From the IMG/VR virus record IMGVR_UViG_3300020043_004524, positions 1 to 25,435 of that record: a stretch of 25,435 nt of DNA; one strand, written 5' to 3'. The DNA comes from a virus (lineage: Duplodnaviria; Caudoviricetes). This document shows positions 13,935 to 23,625 of this stretch, piece by piece. The notes beneath the pieces were generated by a model. It made no database searches. It saw nothing but the letters and a program-made list of their open reading frames with translations, and was not told the DNA's origin. Within the stretch, counting starts at the first letter, position 1. Each line of letters opens with the position of its first letter. A program made the translations under genes and the position numbers.

Positions 13935-16484
13935 ATGCAGGTGCAATCTATTGGACTGGGCGTGATACCTCAGCCTGTTGACGATGATCAGTCTGGGCCG
14001 GAGGTTGAGAGCGTTTATATACCGGGTCCGCGCGGATACCACGGAGGCGGTGCGGCTGGTAGTAATTTTGCCGGTGACTGGGATATGTCGATTGGCGAGC
14101 CGGGGGGGCGTGCTGATGAGCTGACGATTGCCACATTGTCAACGCTGACGGGCACGACAATTACACCCGACTACCCGCTCAGCGTGACAGGAGATTATCT
14201 ATTCACCGGCGGCGAAACGGGACGGATACAGGTAACAGAACCAGAGTATAGCTCGTACGCTGCATTTGCACTGACTATGCCTGCGGGCGCTTGTACTGGT
14301 GTGCAAATAAGGTACTTGGTATCTGTGCTTTGCAACAGCGGCGCGGATGCTGCTGACATCGAGGCGATATTCAACGGCGCCGCGCCCTCAACGGCGGTCT
14401 GGGCCGTTGGCGTCATGTATGACATTTCGGCATATCCTCGTCCGCAGGTTAAAACATTTGCAGTTGTAAACAGCGTTCTTGATCTGGCTAACCCGTTTGT
14501 CGGTTCCGGGTTTAATTATGGTGATGTCTGGCCATTTGCTTACGTTTACCAAACAGGAACATTAACTGATTATTCGGTTGAGTCAATATCCGTTGTCCTT
14601 GATACGGCGGCTATAACCGGCGCTGGCCAGCAATTAAAAATCATTGCTGGCGGCCTTGCGGAATCTGGCCGGACTCAATCCGGATATGGTGCGATCGCTT
14701 ACGCGCAGAACGGGTTTTTATTGACGGCGGACGCGTACCTGCCGGACGGCGCTGTGGATGAAAACTGGTACAGGGTAACTGGCGCCGGGACGTTTGCCGG
14801 TGTTGAAACCGTAATTGGCGATTACGTCAAACTGATTGATGGAATGACAGACATCATTGCCGTGCATTATGGTGCTGATGGTGCTCAGGGGCCGCAGGGA
14901 GACCCCGGTCCTGCTGGCGCTGACGGTGCACCGGGCGCTGATGGTGCTCAGGGTGATCCTGGGCCTGCAGGTGCTGACGGTGCGTCGGCGTATGAGGTAG
15001 CGGTTGCCAATGGGTTTGTTGGCGATGAGGCCGCATGGTTGGCGTCGCTGGTAGGGGCTACTGGAGCAGCAGGGCCAACGGGCGCGACAGGGGCAACGGG
15101 CGCAACCGGACCTGCTGGCGCAACAGGAGCAACAGGAGCAACAGGAGCAACAGGAGCGCCGGGCACTGCCGCAACGATAGCTGTTGGTACTGTGACAACG
15201 GGAGCCGCGGGAAGCTCGGCAGTCATAACAAATTCAGGGTCATCCTCTGCTGCTGTTTTTGATTTTACTATTCCACGCGGGGATACCGGCGCATCGGGCA
15301 GCAGTACCGTCACAATCAGCGGCAAAACCGGCGCATATACAGTTGTTGCTGGAGACCTTGGCACTGTCATCAACTGTACGGCCAATACGTTTACCGTGTC
15401 GTTGACCGCAGCTTCAACGCTTGGTGCGGGATTTCATTGTTGGGTTTGGAACACGTCAGGTACGACAACCCATGTTATTACCATTGATCCCAACGGGGCA
15501 GAAACCATTGATGGTGCCACGACATTGTTACTTCGTCGTGGAGAGGGATGCCAGATCATTTGTGATGGTACTAACTGGCAAACAGGAGGCACTAAAAAAC
15601 AAAGGCTTTATTCAGAAAATGCAATTGTTTCTGTAACACGCCCTGCTGCATACGGTGGAAATAGTGTAGCCATTGGTTCTGGAGCTACAGCAACAGTGAC
15701 CTCTGCGGTTGCTATGGGTGAAACAGCTACGGCAACAGGGACAAATGCCGTGGCGCTTGGAAAAGCCAGAGCAGCGATGATTGATAGTTTTGCCGCTCAA
15801 ATTGGTGATAGCACAACAACTTATGGGGCCAAGACAGCCGCAAATACGATAGCAATGGGTTATCTTGCGGTCGCATCTGGACAATATGCAGCGGTACTTG
15901 GTGGTAGTAGTTGTCAGGCGCAAAGTGCTTATTCGTGCGTAATTGGTGGAGGATCAGCAACCGCACTAGGAACGTATTCTGTGGTACTTGGTGGGTATAA
16001 TACTGTTTCATCGGGTCATGGAAAAGTTGTAAGTGGTACAGGTATGACCGCTTTTGCAGGGCAAGGTACTGCCCAAACTGGGACAATGACAATTGCGCGA
16101 AATACCACTGACGGTACCCCTACAGTATTGTTATCAGATAATGGCACTGCAGGGACGCTAAACCAACTCGCGCTGGCAAACAATCAGTCGATGGCGGTTA
16201 CTGGCCGAGTTATTGCTCAGCGCAAGGGTAGTGAATCCACAACATCAACAGCAATGTGGACATTCAACGCAGTTATCCGGCGAGGTGCAAACGCAGCATC
16301 CACGGCATTAGTTGCCGCTGTTACGCCCGCTTTGATTGCAGCCGATGCCGATGCGGCGGCGTGGACTGTCGCTGTATCGGCTGATACGACAAACGGTACG
16401 CTGGCTGTAACGGCTACAGGTGAGGCCGGGAAAATAATCCGTTGGGTTTGCACGCTGGAATCCACTGAAACTATTTACGCATGA
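13935..16484 (+). CDS. Tail fibre / receptor-binding protein with collagen-like and YadA-head-like repeats
   Basis: Two Gly-X-Y tracts; SAYEVAVANGFVG and FDFTIPRGDTG motifs; NSVAIG/SAVAMG/NAVALG repeats; 849 aa. Confidence 0.85.
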   Translation: MQVQSIGLGVIPQPVDDDQSGPEVESVYIPGPRGYHGGGAAGSNFAGDWDMSIGEPGGRADELTIATLSTLTGTTITPDYPLSVTGDYLFTGGETGRIQVTEPEYSSYAAFALTMPAGACTGVQIRYLVSVLCNSGADAADIEAIFNGAAPSTAVWAVGVMYDISAYPRPQVKTFAVVNSVLDLANPFVGSGFNYGDVWPFAYVYQTGTLTDYSVESISVVLDTAAITGAGQQLKIIAGGLAESGRTQSGYGAIAYAQNGFLLTADAYLPDGAVDENWYRVTGAGTFAGVETVIGDYVKLIDGMTDIIAVHYGADGAQGPQGDPGPAGADGAPGADGAQGDPGPAGADGASAYEVAVANGFVGDEAAWLASLVGATGAAGPTGATGATGATGPAGATGATGATGATGAPGTAATIAVGTVTTGAAGSSAVITNSGSSSAAVFDFTIPRGDTGASGSSTVTISGKTGAYTVVAGDLGTVINCTANTFTVSLTAASTLGAGFHCWVWNTSGTTTHVITIDPNGAETIDGATTLLLRRGEGCQIICDGTNWQTGGTKKQRLYSENAIVSVTRPAAYGGNSVAIGSGATATVTSAVAMGETATATGTNAVALGKARAAMIDSFAAQIGDSTTTYGAKTAANTIAMGYLAVASGQYAAVLGGSSCQAQSAYSCVIGGGSATALGTYSVVLGGYNTVSSGHGKVVSGTGMTAFAGQGTAQTGTMTIARNTTDGTPTVLLSDNGTAGTLNQLALANNQSMAVTGRVIAQRKGSESTTSTAMWTFNAVIRRGANAASTALVAAVTPALIAADADAAAWTVAVSADTTNGTLAVTATGEAGKIIRWVCTLESTETIYA
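14871..15170 (+). repeat. Two collagen-like (GXY)13 tracts, including a GCAACAGGA x4 tandem at 15120-15155
   Basis: Read directly from the DNA and its translation. Confidence 0.9.
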
Positions 16485-18126: not shown

Positions 18127-18879
18127 TCACTTGCAGCTACATGGCAAAACGGCGCAGGCATCGCACCGGCGCTTCACGGCGTCAGCCGTTTTACTGGCAT
18201 CAACAAAATGGTTTTTCCGCCAGTCCCGCCCCTGATAAATGCAGCTATCGCAATACGACTCCTGCGACAGCCCGTTGACCTGGCCACGGTTGGCGCAGGT
18301 TCGGCAGTCGGGCGCAGCTGTCAAGGAATCCTTCACCCCCGCCGGCACCACCCGGGCCCAATGCGTCACCACAAAATTACACCCGGCATTCACCTGGATC
18401 GGCTCGTCGTGCTCCGTGTCCAGCAGGTACCATTGCAGCCCATCCCAGTACCCGGCTTTCCAGTCGGTATCGATGCCGTCGATCAGGATGGTGACAATTA
18501 CGTCATCCGACAATCCCGGCTTGGCTTCATCGGCAGAGATCCAGCGCAGGGCGGGAGCCGGTAATGCTGCCGCGGCGTAAAACTCATGAATCGTGTCAGG
18601 CATCGCCAGCTTCTGGCACTGCATCTCAATTTTGCTACGGGTCCAGAACCGGATGAATTGTCCGCATTCGGAAAAGGCGACATACAGATCCGGTTTTTTG
18701 GTGGCCGCCAGCGTTAACGCGGCGTCAGCGTCAGCCAGCTCTTTGTGCAGTTGTTCAACCTCCGCGGTCAGCCCCTGAACAGCATCAGCAACCCTGTCGC
18801 GCAACTGTTCGGTCTGCCCGTACTGTTTCGCAATCGCGGTCAGATCATTCACCAGCTTTGCAATATCGTGATTTTTCAT
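18127..18879 (-). CDS. Modular early protein with a DUF551-like domain and Cys-rich C-terminus
   Basis: GGAGGAG SD; RWISADEAKP...VTHWA (DUF551-like); three CxxC motifs near the C-terminus. Confidence 0.75.
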   Translation of the reverse strand: MKNHDIAKLVNDLTAIAKQYGQTEQLRDRVADAVQGLTAEVEQLHKELADADAALTLAATKKPDLYVAFSECGQFIRFWTRSKIEMQCQKLAMPDTIHEFYAAAALPAPALRWISADEAKPGLSDDVIVTILIDGIDTDWKAGYWDGLQWYLLDTEHDEPIQVNAGCNFVVTHWARVVPAGVKDSLTAAPDCRTCANRGQVNGLSQESYCDSCIYQGRDWRKNHFVDASKTADAVKRRCDACAVLPCSCK

Positions 18880-19237: not shown

Positions 19238-20065
19238 TCAGGTGTTGGCTTCAAGGATCTGGCAGTCGCTGGCGATGTTCTCGCGCAGCTGCTGCATCAC
19301 CGCCTTGATCGCGTCGTCACGCACAACGTGGAACCGGATCAGCTCGTACCACATCGTGATTTTTCCGCCGTTCAACCGGTACCGGAAATTGGCGTCAATG
19401 GCATAGCGCTGACTACCGCGAAACAGTTGCACGCCCAGCTGCAGCTTCACAGGAATCTGCAACTGACCGCTGGCGCCGGCTGACCCCTGGATAGTCTCGT
19501 TGTACTGGAATTGCACCTGGCCGTTCTCCAGCCGGATATGGCTGCGGAAATCCACCCCGGTCTTGGCCTGCAGCGTGGTGGCAATCTCCAGCATCAAGGC
19601 GGGTTCAGGTGCGTGTATTTCCGGCAGGCCGTCCTCGATAAAGCTGGCAAACGTGGTCTGGTCCATGGCCTTTTTGTCGCTGTTGACCCACTTCTCGGCC
19701 TCCGGCGTCAGCACAAAGTCATAAACCACCGCATGGCGACACCAGCGTTGACCCGGCCAGTCGTCAGACTCGTGGTAATCCAGCACGCCAAGAATCCGCT
19801 GCTTTTCGTAGTCCACAAAAATCGTGGAGTTCTGATCACAAAAGCGGTTGAAATACTCGATAAAGCTTTGAACAGACTGCGTGTTCACCGTCTTTTGCAG
19901 ATCCACCGGCCGTTCGCGCATGTGCTCGAAACGCTCCAGCTTGAAGCCCTGGGGCACAATCACGCAGGGGGTACCGGAAATTTCAAAGGGTTTCACGATC
20001 TCGGCCATCAGCCCGGCATTCAGGCCAGACTGCAGCTGCATCACAACATCGGGTTGGTTTTCCAT
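19238..20065 (-). CDS. DUF2303 (YfdQ-like) family protein
   Basis: SFIEYFNRF, GVLDYH, MDQTTFASFIED, RLENGQVQFQYNE and FRYRL motifs. Confidence 0.88.
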   Translation of the reverse strand: MENQPDVVMQLQSGLNAGLMAEIVKPFEISGTPCVIVPQGFKLERFEHMRERPVDLQKTVNTQSVQSFIEYFNRFCDQNSTIFVDYEKQRILGVLDYHESDDWPGQRWCRHAVVYDFVLTPEAEKWVNSDKKAMDQTTFASFIEDGLPEIHAPEPALMLEIATTLQAKTGVDFRSHIRLENGQVQFQYNETIQGSAGASGQLQIPVKLQLGVQLFRGSQRYAIDANFRYRLNGGKITMWYELIRFHVVRDDAIKAVMQQLRENIASDCQILEANT

Positions 20066-20092
20066 GATGGTCTCGGGGTTGGTTAGAGTGGG

Positions 20093-20377
20093 TTAGGCAG
20101 TATGTTTGCTTAACAAGATTCTCCTTTCGATTTTGTTAAGTAACTCTAAATCTAAAGGATTGTTTTGGCGCATCCATTTTATTCGTAAAAAAACATGGTC
20201 ATCATAAGTTGCTATAGGCTCACCATCAAAAGTGGCACTCATCATAACCATAGACTCATCACCACAAATTATAGCTGGTGCATATACGTCGTTATTATTG
20301 TCAATCCCTGCTGTTCTTTGCCATTCAGGGGCTTTTTTACTATTGCCACCAACAGTAAAAAACTCAATATTGCTCAT
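20093..20377 (-). CDS. AT-rich 94-aa hypothetical cassette protein, inverted relative to attC
   Basis: GGAGA SD before ATG 20377; the TAA stop lies inside the core site. Confidence 0.8.
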   Translation of the reverse strand: MSNIEFFTVGGNSKKAPEWQRTAGIDNNNDVYAPAIICGDESMVMMSATFDGEPIATYDDHVFLRIKWMRQNNPLDLELLNKIERRILLSKHTA

Positions 20378-20405
20378 AATTTTCTCCAATTCATCGTTAA
20401 AATAT

Positions 20406-20490
20406 GCCTAACTCTCATTCAAGCCGACACTAACCTAGCCTTGCTTTGTAATAAGTCAGGGGCGGTGCGGCTTAATTTAATCAGTTGGGT
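20406..20490 (+). other. attC: attC recombination site (85 bp)
   Basis: R'' GCCTAAC; L'' ATT[C]AAGC; CG[A]CAC; 34-nt variable terminal structure; GTGCG; L' GCTTAAT; R' GTTGGGT (fits GTTRRRY). Confidence 0.88.
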
Positions 20491-20859
20491 TCAAACAACG
20501 CGCTTGAGTTCGCCGGCGGGTGCCTCAACGGTTTTCACGGCGCTGGTATCCAGAGCCACCGACACCAGCGGCAACTTCTGCTGGCGCGGGTCTTCGCGGG
20601 TCAAGTTACCTTCCGGCGTGCCAAAGAAAATCGTCTGTTCCTTCGGCAAGCTGGGCAGCTTTTGCTTGATCTCGTCGGTCAAAAAATACTGACCGCTGGC
20701 GCCCTGGGGCTTGATGTTGATCACCAGCGTCAGCGTGGCGTTTTTGCCGGTGCTGCTGGCGCGGTCAACGCATTCGGCCAGCTTCTCTGACAGTTCCTCC
20801 GCCGCAGCGCCATATCGCAGCTGGTTGAGGGTAGAAACAAACAAATCGGGGCGTTTCAT
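20491..20859 (-). CDS. Conserved partner of DUF2303 (YfdP-like)
   Basis: TGKNATLTLVINIKP and FFGTPEGNLTREDPRQQKLPL motifs; GAGG SD. Confidence 0.82.
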   Translation of the reverse strand: MKRPDLFVSTLNQLRYGAAAEELSEKLAECVDRASSTGKNATLTLVINIKPQGASGQYFLTDEIKQKLPSLPKEQTIFFGTPEGNLTREDPRQQKLPLVSVALDTSAVKTVEAPAGELKRVV

Positions 20860-20864
20860 GGGTG

Positions 20865-21335
20865 TCACCTCTGTGTTTTCTGGTGCGACTTGCCGTGCTT
20901 GGCAAGCAGGGTTTGCAGACCGTCTGCAATTCGGGTCTTCCAGGCGTTGCTGGGGATCATGTGTTTCTGGAACCAGTTGGCCAGCGTCAGGCGCGGCACG
21001 CCTGTCAGCTCGGCTAGCTGCTTGTAGGTCAGGCGGGCGCTGAATAGGTCATGCTGGATATCAAACGACTCCGGCCAAGGGATAGCTCTCCTGCCTCTGC
21101 CGCGCACCGCATCATCCTGTTGGGCGCAGTCCTTTGTTTGTTGCGGAGCCCGGTGCGGCGGTAGCGGCGCCGGCGTATATCCGGGCAAAACAGTTACCTT
21201 TCCGCCACGACGCAAGAACTCCTCAACCTCTCGCTCCAGCTCCTGACGCATGGACTGGTTGGCATGTCTGGCAGTCGCCAGCGGCACGCTCTTGCGCAAG
21301 CTCCTGTCCATAAACTCCGCATCACCGACTCGCAT
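20865..21335 (-). CDS. Putative regulator: SutA-like RNAP-binding motif plus XRE-type HTH
   Basis: GAGGAGG SD; RQELEREVEEFLRRGGKVTVLP; LTYKQLAELTGVPRLTLANWF. Confidence 0.7.
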   Translation of the reverse strand: MRVGDAEFMDRSLRKSVPLATARHANQSMRQELEREVEEFLRRGGKVTVLPGYTPAPLPPHRAPQQTKDCAQQDDAVRGRGRRAIPWPESFDIQHDLFSARLTYKQLAELTGVPRLTLANWFQKHMIPSNAWKTRIADGLQTLLAKHGKSHQKTQR

Positions 21336-21591
21336 GGCTGGGCCTCCTCGCCACCTCGCGGGGGGCGCGCCATGGAAGCAGCTTGATGCCGTATTCCGTG
21401 GCCATGCATTTGCGCTCAATCAGCAGCATGCTGTTGTCCCAGCTCAGCCGGTTGTTGGTGCTGTGCAGCTGCATGTTTTCCGTCATCAAACGGCGGCGTT
21501 CGCGGGCTGCCATACGCAGTTCGTGCAGACACAGCAGCAGGGCTACTGCGGTTATGACAAGCGCCACGGACAAATAGATCTGGTCCATCAC
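21322..21591 (-). CDS. Small protein with an N-terminal TM segment and a coiled coil
   Basis: IYLSVALVITAVALLLCL followed by heptad-spaced leucines. Confidence 0.65.
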   Translation of the reverse strand: MMDQIYLSVALVITAVALLLCLHELRMAARERRRLMTENMQLHSTNNRLSWDNSMLLIERKCMATEYGIKLLPWRAPREVARRPSHASR

Positions 21592-21598
21592 GCGGCCC

Positions 21599-21751
21599 TC
21601 AGTGCACGGTCACGGCCAGCAGCTGGCCGGTGCTGTCGGTGTAGAGGACTGCGTGCAGTTGATCCTGCAAACGCGCAATGTGGTCCGGACTGCTCAGCAC
21701 GTCATGCGTGACCTGGGCGGCGGGGTTGGCGATGGGGGTGATGCTGGCCAT
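21599..21751 (-). CDS. 50-aa hypothetical protein, first gene of the leftward operon
   Basis: GGAG SD before ATG 21751. Confidence 0.6.
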   Translation of the reverse strand: MASITPIANPAAQVTHDVLSSPDHIARLQDQLHAVLYTDSTGQLLAVTVH

Positions 21752-21781
21752 GGCGGCGGCTCCGTTGTTGTTGTGCTGTGG

Positions 21782-21830
21782 TTGCACGATATACCAACAA
21801 GGTATAATATGACAATACCCAAACGGGATA
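21782..21830. promoter_or_regulatory. OL/PL region: two operators and putative overlapping promoters on both strands
   Basis: Operators TATACC-AACAA-GGTATA (21790-21806) and AATACC-CAAAC-GGGATA (21814-21830). Minus strand has TTGTCA-18-TATCGT. Plus strand has TATAAT at 21803-21808. Confidence 0.75.
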
Positions 21831-21841
21831 TTGGAGAAAAA

Positions 21842-22573: not shown

Positions 22574-23278
22574 TCAAAGTGTCCCGCCTTGCCATACCAC
22601 CCGCCCGATAATCCGCACATCGGGCGACTCCTCAGAATCAATCACCTCGTCCGGAAACTCCGCTTTGTTGGGGTTGTCGGACGATACCCGGTACCGGCTG
22701 GCGCCAACGCGGTGCAGCCGCTTCACCCGTTCCTCGCCAAACCAGTTCAGCACATATACCCGGCCGCTTTCCGGCGCGGTCTGGCTGGTGTCCACCAGCA
22801 GCACGGCGCCGTCGGTAATGGTGGGGGCCATGCTGTCCTGGCGCGCGTAGATCACTACCAGATTGGCGGCTTTCCACCCCCTGTCGCGGATCCAGCTGCG
22901 CATAAAGGCCAGCCCGCCGTTCACTTCCACATGATCATTCAGCAGGCCGTTGCCGCAGGCGGCGTGGACGTTGTACCTGGGGATGATGATGTGAGTTTCT
23001 TCGCTGGGAGACTTTGGATCTGACGGCTGGCCTTCGTGTTCTTTTTCAGCTTCGGGGGGATGTTCCTTATCCATCCAACCGTGGGGAAGGTTGAACGCTT
23101 TTTCAATTTCACGGGAAATGGTTGGTCCAATCCCTTTTGATGGGTTTCTCCCGATGTAGTTGCTGATCAAGGCGGTTGGCTTTCCCAAAAGGTCGGCCAA
23201 GCCTTTGATTGGGTGCACGGGGTCGGCTTGCCTGGCCAGTCTTCTGGCGTTTTCCAGGCGGATTTCTCTAGTGATCAT
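22574..23278 (-). CDS. cI: CI-like repressor (HTH plus S24 peptidase)
   Basis: N-terminal HTH; AACGNG cleavage region; QDSM catalytic Ser; VKRL Lys; IIGRVVW C-terminus. Confidence 0.93.
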   Translation of the reverse strand: MITREIRLENARRLARQADPVHPIKGLADLLGKPTALISNYIGRNPSKGIGPTISREIEKAFNLPHGWMDKEHPPEAEKEHEGQPSDPKSPSEETHIIIPRYNVHAACGNGLLNDHVEVNGGLAFMRSWIRDRGWKAANLVVIYARQDSMAPTITDGAVLLVDTSQTAPESGRVYVLNWFGEERVKRLHRVGASRYRVSSDNPNKAEFPDEVIDSEESPDVRIIGRVVWQGGTL

Positions 23279-23297
23279 GCCGGGATTACACATTCTT

Positions 23298-23366
23298 TAT
23301 ACCTGTTTGGTAAATGGCCTTGTTGGTATTGCTGACATGGGTTACGCTATACCAACATGGTATAGT
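23298..23366. promoter_or_regulatory. OR region with three operators and putative PR/PRM
   Basis: Operators TATACC-TGTTT-GGTAAA (23298-23314), ATGGCC-TTGTT-GGTATT (23314-23330) and TATACC-AACAT-GGTATA (23348-23364). Extended -10 TGgTATAGT. Confidence 0.78.
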
Positions 23367-23376
23367 GAGAATCACG

Positions 23377-23625
23377 ATGAAGCTCCAGGCCTACATTCGC
23401 AGCCTCGATCCTGAGCAGTTGCGCATTTATGCGGATGCGTGCGGAACATCTGCCGCTTATGTGCAGATTCATCTTCTGCATGCCAGGAAGACTCCGCGCG
23501 CGCCGCTTCTCAGGGCATTGGCTTTCAACTCCGGCGGCGCAGTGACCGAGCTGGAAGTTCTCCAGCATTTTGGCCTGATCGAGGCCCCTGATGAGGACAG
23601 CGTAGCGACAGAAGCCGCCGCCTGA
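23377..23625 (+). CDS. cro: Cro-like (YdaS-type) regulator
   Basis: Divergent from cI; YADACGTSAAYV HTH; SGGAVT motif. Confidence 0.85.
   Translation: MKLQAYIRSLDPEQLRIYADACGTSAAYVQIHLLHARKTPRAPLLRALAFNSGGAVTELEVLQHFGLIEAPDEDSVATEAAA

Follow-up and report, generated by a model that had tools for sequence, protein, structure and literature searches.

Solo cassettes that lie outside integrons, at attG sites with a GWT consensus, have already been published as SALINs (Loot et al., bioRxiv 10.1101/2022.09.11.507474); in the accessible part of that preprint the word 'phage' occurs twice and 'prophage' never. Phage-borne CALINs and the use of their attC sites by IntI1 have been published as well (Qi et al. 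2023, PMC9892861), and the attC sites of phage H101 are IntI1 substrates (PMC9892861). For the entry of these arrays into phages the authors favoured homologous or illegitimate recombination, and the accessible part of their text is silent on gene polarity. A survey of Acinetobacter phages, in the part openly available, took single attC-like matches as noise (PMC13676570).

Here we describe a single attC cassette in a phage genome. The window, that is, the whole 25.4-kb stretch of DNA analysed, is a viral record that is about 60% complete. It encodes terminase, portal, capsid and tail genes on the + strand and a leftward block of small genes; genes for a Peptidase_S24 repressor, a primase and a CII-type protein are present as well. 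This gene layout would fit a temperate tailed phage. The window further includes a gene for an 849-aa collagen-like tail fibre (13935–16484), with a GC content (48–60%) below that of the structural module, and an early gene (20865–21419, − strand) that combines a SutA RNA-polymerase-binding domain (PF20661, E 1.5e-8) with a weak repressor HTH. In our view a host integron integrase, supplied in trans, probably placed a complete attC cassette with a reversed gene into this phage, with base precision, at a non-attI (attG-type) site: a G/TT that separates two conserved genes.

Filled and empty alleles of the insertion site

Viral contigs were searched with the upstream gene (phrog_204), and 38 loci were retrieved. 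In two of them, L001 and L002, the flanks are 95–99% identical to the window and the site is empty, with the phage sequence joined directly at G/TT. The L001 record matches the window without a single difference over 717 bases to the left and 856 bases to the right. The two empty-allele contigs appear to be one phage and weigh about once. They confirm, with the expected G/TT junction, the proposal of the earlier note that a complete 392-bp cassette was inserted here. Its reading of the left end (G/TTAGGCA at 20092) and of R'' as the exact complement of the left core agrees with the sequence; the G of the right crossover, which it had placed at 20485, is at 20484.

DUF2303 adjoins phrog_204 in 37 of the 38 related loci. 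The spacer between the two genes is 12–68 nt in 35 of the 35 relatives in which it was measurable (L004, L028 and L038 being those in which it was not), versus 425 nt in the window; the filled state is therefore derived and recent. We find it very improbable that the cassette is older at this site and was lost from L001 and L002 through precise excision. Loot et al. (bioRxiv 10.1101/2022.09.11.507474, accessible part) did see such excision of genome-inserted cassettes in a minority of their clones, but the short spacer is common to all measurable relatives, an unrelated array of 42% GC has a copy of the gene with 99.4% identity, and the attC in place has lost its R stem. The entry route would be unchanged anyway.

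The cassette ends have only GTT in common, a triplet found at 1.4% of positions. Both ends fall exactly at the cassette G/TT, and one whole cassette was gained with nothing extra. These features argue against a capture event, either illegitimate or driven by a phage recombinase at microhomology, in which part of another phage was taken up and incidentally brought an attC along. Phage early regions are mosaic, with other swapped blocks between the window and L106, and the shared leaders near R'' make homology-type exchange likely among these cassettes; as the origin of the present insert, such a capture seems quite improbable to us. Three further blocks of the window (18231–18337, 21552–21832 and 23017–23592) also differ from the empty-allele contigs and have no attC sites.

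An insertion sequence or MITE was considered and rejected, since the inverted core repeats flank the gene and not the insert and the ORF has no Pfam match. The three shared bases, which might be taken for a target duplication, are the IntI crossover triplet.

Looking for a second record with filled junctions, we obtained just the two empty alleles and one further match, L126, an 18-base chance match that was discarded. The contigs of eight public runs reach the phage flanks or span the filled junctions in none of the eight, one of which, X21, yielded nothing. We give least credence of all to an assembly chimera of the window phage and an abundant cassette array. No independent contig crosses the filled junctions, and attC repeats are abundant in such samples; however, the junctions share three bases with the phage, which should be far under any assembler word length, and the phage sequence is restored exactly on both sides.

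The target is a 33-nt spacer between two conserved phage genes. Its G/TT fits the GWT rule and has no attI inverted L box upstream. The CRGM hotspot motif of Loot et al. is absent from the target, in which positions 6–9 read TTCA. In gene leaders generally, GWT is somewhat commoner on the template strand, but the excess is too weak to build on (45 versus 30 over 31 genes; 5 versus 0 in the target spacer).

Anatomy of the cassette and its attC site

The features of the cassette and of its neighbourhood are collected in Table 1. The insert (20093–20484) has a GC content of 37%, compared with 61% in the remainder of the window. Its core repeats are of the R'' RYYYAAC and R' GTTRRRY type; GCCTAAC (20406–20412) and GTTAGGC (20092–20098) are complementary in the circular cassette, and the 8-base extension of R'' is the exact complement of the left core.

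Table 1 Features of the inserted cassette and the adjoining phage genes (positions in the window).
Feature	Position	Strand	Remarks
Inserted cassette, 392 bp	20093..20484	+ (attC top strand)	gap 0 in L001/L002; identical flanks of 717 + 856 bases
Left crossover and core site G/TTAGGCA (GTTAGGCA)	20092..20099	+	G is phage, remainder is cassette
94-aa gene	20093..20377	-	reversed relative to attC, co-oriented with phage operon
Leader with GGAG ribosome-binding-like motif at 20384-20387	20378..20405	-	sequence
attC site	20406..20490	+	covariance-model match and covariation (scores in text)
attC R'' GCCTAAC	20406-20412	+	sequence
attC L''	20417-20424	+	inside left arm 20417-20430; 4-nt spacer after R''
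attC extrahelical bases	C 20420, A 20427 (left arm)	+	G and T on the bottom strand
attC loop, 34 nt	20431-20464	+	sequence
attC right arm; L'	20465-20476; 20470-20476	+	followed by 7-nt spacer
attC R'	20484-20490	+	G/TT at 20484-20486, then phage sequence
Upstream phage gene phrog_204, intact	20491..20859	-	stop 20491-20493; 100% identical in L001/L002
Downstream phage gene DUF2303 (Pfam PF10065), intact	19238..20065	-	start 27 nt past the cassette gene stop

In integron cassettes the gene usually, if not universally, lies on the top strand of attC and ends at R''. Here it is on the bottom strand. The AT-rich 94-aa ORF had been recognized in the earlier note, which left unstated that it runs on the minus strand and so against the attC polarity. 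The gene starts 29 nt from R'', and its stop codon, TAA, lies within the complement of the left core. The GGAG motif ahead of it may act as a ribosome-binding site, and the leader (20378–20405) is common to cassettes with other genes (L049; loose ends at 20383–20387). Promoter-like sites within the cassette are at chance level (3 found versus 2.1 expected). With the G/TT on the template strand, the gene is aligned with the leftward operon because it is reversed.

Thirty attC sites from bacterial integrons, with no phage-type site among them, served to build a covariance model, and the window and the two empty-allele contigs (56,683 bases) were searched with it. The site at 20406–20490 on the + strand was the sole match, with 21.5 bits and a modest E-value (0.018, the calibration being rough); neither empty-allele contig gave an attC match. 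A rule-based attC detector reported one site in the window and one match over ten shuffles of the window, and an Rfam scan of the window returned nothing relevant. As described previously, the arms pair save for an extra C and an extra A. Seven of the 12 pairs of the stem show a compensatory change across 17 sites, and 99.6% of cells are paired, in an alignment of chosen sites (11 near the window type and 6 more distant) whose kinship inflates the covariation. The plain folding energy of the site is unremarkable (bottom strand z −0.64). The bottom-strand fold suggested in the earlier note has the full R stem in the circular form (−14.9 kcal/mol) and loses it in the in-place form (−9.0), so that the cassette should donate well when circular and poorly in its present state; the other check suggested there, an attC covariance model, recovered the site.

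The 4/7-nt spacers of this attC reflect a conserved attC type and not decay: eight other sites with 4/7 spacers were found, with at least eight other genes. The cassette attC is predicted to be recombined by IntI as a folded bottom strand, its 4/7 spacers being atypical. We also considered a true attC located downstream of the gene, on the strand of the gene itself. This was rejected, as the extrahelical bases give the opposite polarity in 8 of 8 hairpins detected in L039.

A complete integron, with intI and attI beside the cassette, is not present in the window, and neither is a CALIN, which has two or more clustered attC sites, the window having one. The single attC and the lack of a TIGR02249 match in the window record (about 60% complete), in line with the earlier statement that no integron integrase was in view, correspond to a SALIN.

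The 94-aa protein belongs to a family of 337 clusters at E ≤ 0.001. The ORF was not found in viral contigs, species genomes or named phages, and neither the protein nor any of 124 relatives could be assigned through Pfam, PHROG, PADLOC, PDB sequences or the Atlas, which leaves a role in defence or anti-defence unsupported. The structure of the protein was predicted with a pLDDT of 93.5. A fold search with this model gave a best Z of 5.2 (4ye7; rmsd 3.5, 79 aligned), with KilA-N-type chains at Z 3.7–3.9, and Foldseek gave no match at E ≤ 0.001. The modelled fold may resemble the KilA-N/Bro-N (APSES) DNA-binding domains, a likeness that is weak and no more than a lead. One canonical bacterial cassette with two genes (L134 145–1234, G634) includes a distant relative of the cargo gene, and other relatives were observed on Pseudomonas plasmids, beside integrase and transposon genes.

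Phage-borne arrays with reversed genes

One metagenome locus, L039, was found for the 94-aa gene, with a copy that is 99.4% identical at the nucleotide level. In L039, small genes of phage-like character (methyltransferase, phrog_322, HTH) are lined up with attC hairpins between them, and most of the genes are flanked by their own inverted core repeats. The array has a GC content of 42% and is unrelated to the window phage. The attC-arm pattern of the window was then matched against viral contigs and returned 14 loci, all of which have attC sites (13 after merging an overlap). The donor-type loci (L039–L053, L064 and L065) are CALIN-like. Two of the loci lie in complete phages, namely G004 (42 kb), which encodes a head-tail connector, a capsid protein and a lambda-type integrase, and G005 (43 kb), which encodes a terminase and a portal and whose array has at least 11 sites. 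The window attC was not found in named phages by blastn, and neither the leader pattern nor the L039 downstream-arm pattern gave any match in viral contigs.

The array loci were chosen by attC sequence and not by gene direction. In 40 of 43 distinct array segments shorter than 1000 bases, the longest ORF runs opposite to the attC top strand. Counted per site, the phage type includes 52 reversed, 6 canonical and 5 unclear cases (n = 63), compared with 6 reversed, 27 canonical and 15 unclear in the bacterial integron control (n = 48), a difference whose significance (Fisher p 7e-12) is overstated because contigs are related. The immediate source of the cassette looks like phage-borne arrays with reversed genes and not a bacterial array of the aadA/Xanthomonas type. 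The resemblance to aadA/Xanthomonas-type sites pointed out in the earlier note holds for the arms, which are near-identical to those of attCaadA7; it does not extend to the spacers (4/7 and not 5/6) or to the source, which looks like a phage array.

Two side observations were made on these arrays. A 1284-base contig filed in a Saccharibacteria MAG (L065) holds a reversed array with an attC nearly identical to that of the window, and is likely a mis-binned phage contig. A YATCG motif lies at most 35 nt from R'' in 35 of 62 phage-type cassettes versus 4 of 47 host cassettes.

Exchange of neighbours was seen at both ends of the cassette. At R', four public runs have attC right-arm ends ahead of the 94-aa gene at 20092, four in all and each different, and the window attC is followed at 20486 by differing sequence or cassettes in four public runs; these variable neighbours are canonical shuffling at R'. 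At R'', the partner of the 94-aa gene is the window attC in X1, a second attC in L039, and a third one in X7, X12 and X15. One gene with three different attC sites means that gene and attC have been reassorted. Among cassette pairs sharing a gene start, the attC is the same in 7 of 9, and these 7 all stem from just two pairs of contigs that are near-identical; in the other 2, whose contigs are unrelated, the attCs differ, and a further unrelated pair (L039/L042), dropped by the length filter, has the same attC type.

Two candidate routes for the gene-attC swap would be top-strand recombination at R'' and homology-driven exchange in the shared leaders. Sites with only two extrahelical bases can recombine the top strand at R'' at a low rate, according to the accessible part of Nivina et al. 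2016 (PMC5027507). At 20383–20387, near the ribosome-binding-like motif, loose ends of other genes meet, which marks this position as a candidate gene-swap point. With one gene that has three attC sites and one attC type that has eight or more genes, the long-standing question of cassette genesis becomes testable on defined substrates.

Integrase, host and relation to known systems

IntI was called at the TIGR02249 cut-off. None of the 16 viral records, that of the window included (2 complete, 14 fragments), has an IntI over this cut-off. In species genomes the left arm of the window attC occurs in two places, L064 and L065. L064 is a prophage region (terminase, P22-like portal, capsid) with a reversed array in G016, a MAG titled Agitococcus. 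G016 also encodes an IntI (478.7 bits), on another contig than the prophage array; next to it come an attI-like G/TT and then a canonical cassette, the attC of which is of the phage-site family. IntI and reversed arrays meet in one cell, G016. In the family of G016, 24 of 121 genomes have an IntI over the cut-off, and one of these 24, G022, has a phage-type reversed cassette within a chromosomal array, a hint that cassettes pass from phage arrays to host integrons.

Two cassettes of these host integrons may be noted in their own right. In G022 (C6; L105 2657–3148, L095 116–646), a reversed phage-type cassette stands among canonical ones, and its reading frame starts in the attC loop. The second cassette of the G016 integron (C11; L075 1912–4072) is 2.1 kb long and has a reversed gene for a 372-aa rolling-circle replication protein (REP_ORF2-G2P, E 1.9e-12); it could be able to self-replicate, or could be a small replicon captured through attC.

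As to the host of the window phage, DUF2303 was not found in the 121 genomes of the G016 family, and the best primase match was 44% among 401. The sole link of the window phage to array-carrying phages is a weak one: G004 shares the phrog_204/DUF2303 early gene pair (62%/52%) and the repressor (36%). IntI in trans would be the best enzyme for the insertion; that this 61%-GC phage infects a G016-type cell would be conjecture. The same precise insertion might have been made by another tyrosine recombinase, a phage-encoded IntI or a Xer-type enzyme, from a co-infecting phage or from the missing part of the genome. The window record is incomplete (about 60%), so that a phage recombinase may lie elsewhere, and G004 has a phage integrase next to its array. 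That enzyme, however, is a lambda-type integrase with an arm-binding domain, far below the IntI cut-off; no tyrosine recombinase was found in the complete G005, with its array of at least 11 sites, and a host IntI, that of G016, uses the same attC family. We therefore regard another recombinase as unlikely.

For insertion by a host IntI, attC x attC recombination would have released the cassette in circular form from an array in a phage or prophage, and the folded bottom strand of the circle would have recombined with the double-stranded GWT site of the phage, in a cell holding both DNAs and expressing IntI. The reversed gene would then be read by the leftward, likely early, phage transcript, with its own GGAG leader and with both neighbours left intact. 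The new attC could take further cassettes and seed an array. In a wider picture, which we put forward tentatively and hold to be somewhat short of probable, tailed phages keep their own pool of mirror-image cassettes, with attC before the gene, that are run by host IntI. These cassettes would hop among unrelated phages at bare G/TT sites, seeding arrays, and travel into and out of host integrons, and new ones would arise by a gene-attC swap at R'' or in the shared leader, so that a path of cassette genesis would be open to view.

If IntI acts here, integrons would also be a tool that phages borrow, to trade early genes between genomes of very different composition, and would be more than a bacterial store of defence and resistance genes. 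The locus provides a natural, base-exact filled and empty pair for an off-platform cassette insertion, in a phage, and ties the insertion both to a phage-side cassette pool in which genes are reversed and to a host IntI whose own cassette has an attC of this family. In the openly accessible literature searched, largely at title level, neither reversed cassettes in phages nor a phage locus with filled and empty alleles came up.

The attCaadA7-type sites share with the window site the extrahelical G and T on the bottom strand and near-identical arms, as far as the accessible part of Nivina et al. 2016 (PMC5027507) goes, and differ in their 5/6 spacers (PMC9892861, accessible part of Table S3), compared with 4/7 in the window. 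The window loop is also longer and AT-rich, and its attC is 5' of the gene on the mRNA strand. The sedentary chromosomal integrons of the G016 family share the attC family (long loop, TAACT start) in G016 and G022 and have IntI, whereas most of their cassettes are canonical (27 of the 48 control sites above) and are located after intI and attI.

Phage CALINs, as set out in the accessible part of PMC9892861, resemble the window in having attC sites in phage genomes without IntI and small genes and methyltransferases as cargo; unlike here, two or more attCs were required and no empty alleles were given. In H101 (NC_029094.1 76228–77987, L114), all three attC matches are on the + strand and the annotated genes on the − strand, which is the reversed layout. 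Among the published phages, H101 is reversed, TJE1 canonical and attC1 of P12002L reversed. SALINs share with the window case a single cassette with one attC, no integrase nearby, and a GWT site that is neither attI nor attC. The window case differs in that it lies in a phage, has a natural empty allele, carries its gene reversed relative to attC and apparently stems from a phage array. What entered this phage, by a real and precise insertion of the SALIN type, is a reversed cassette out of a phage-side pool.
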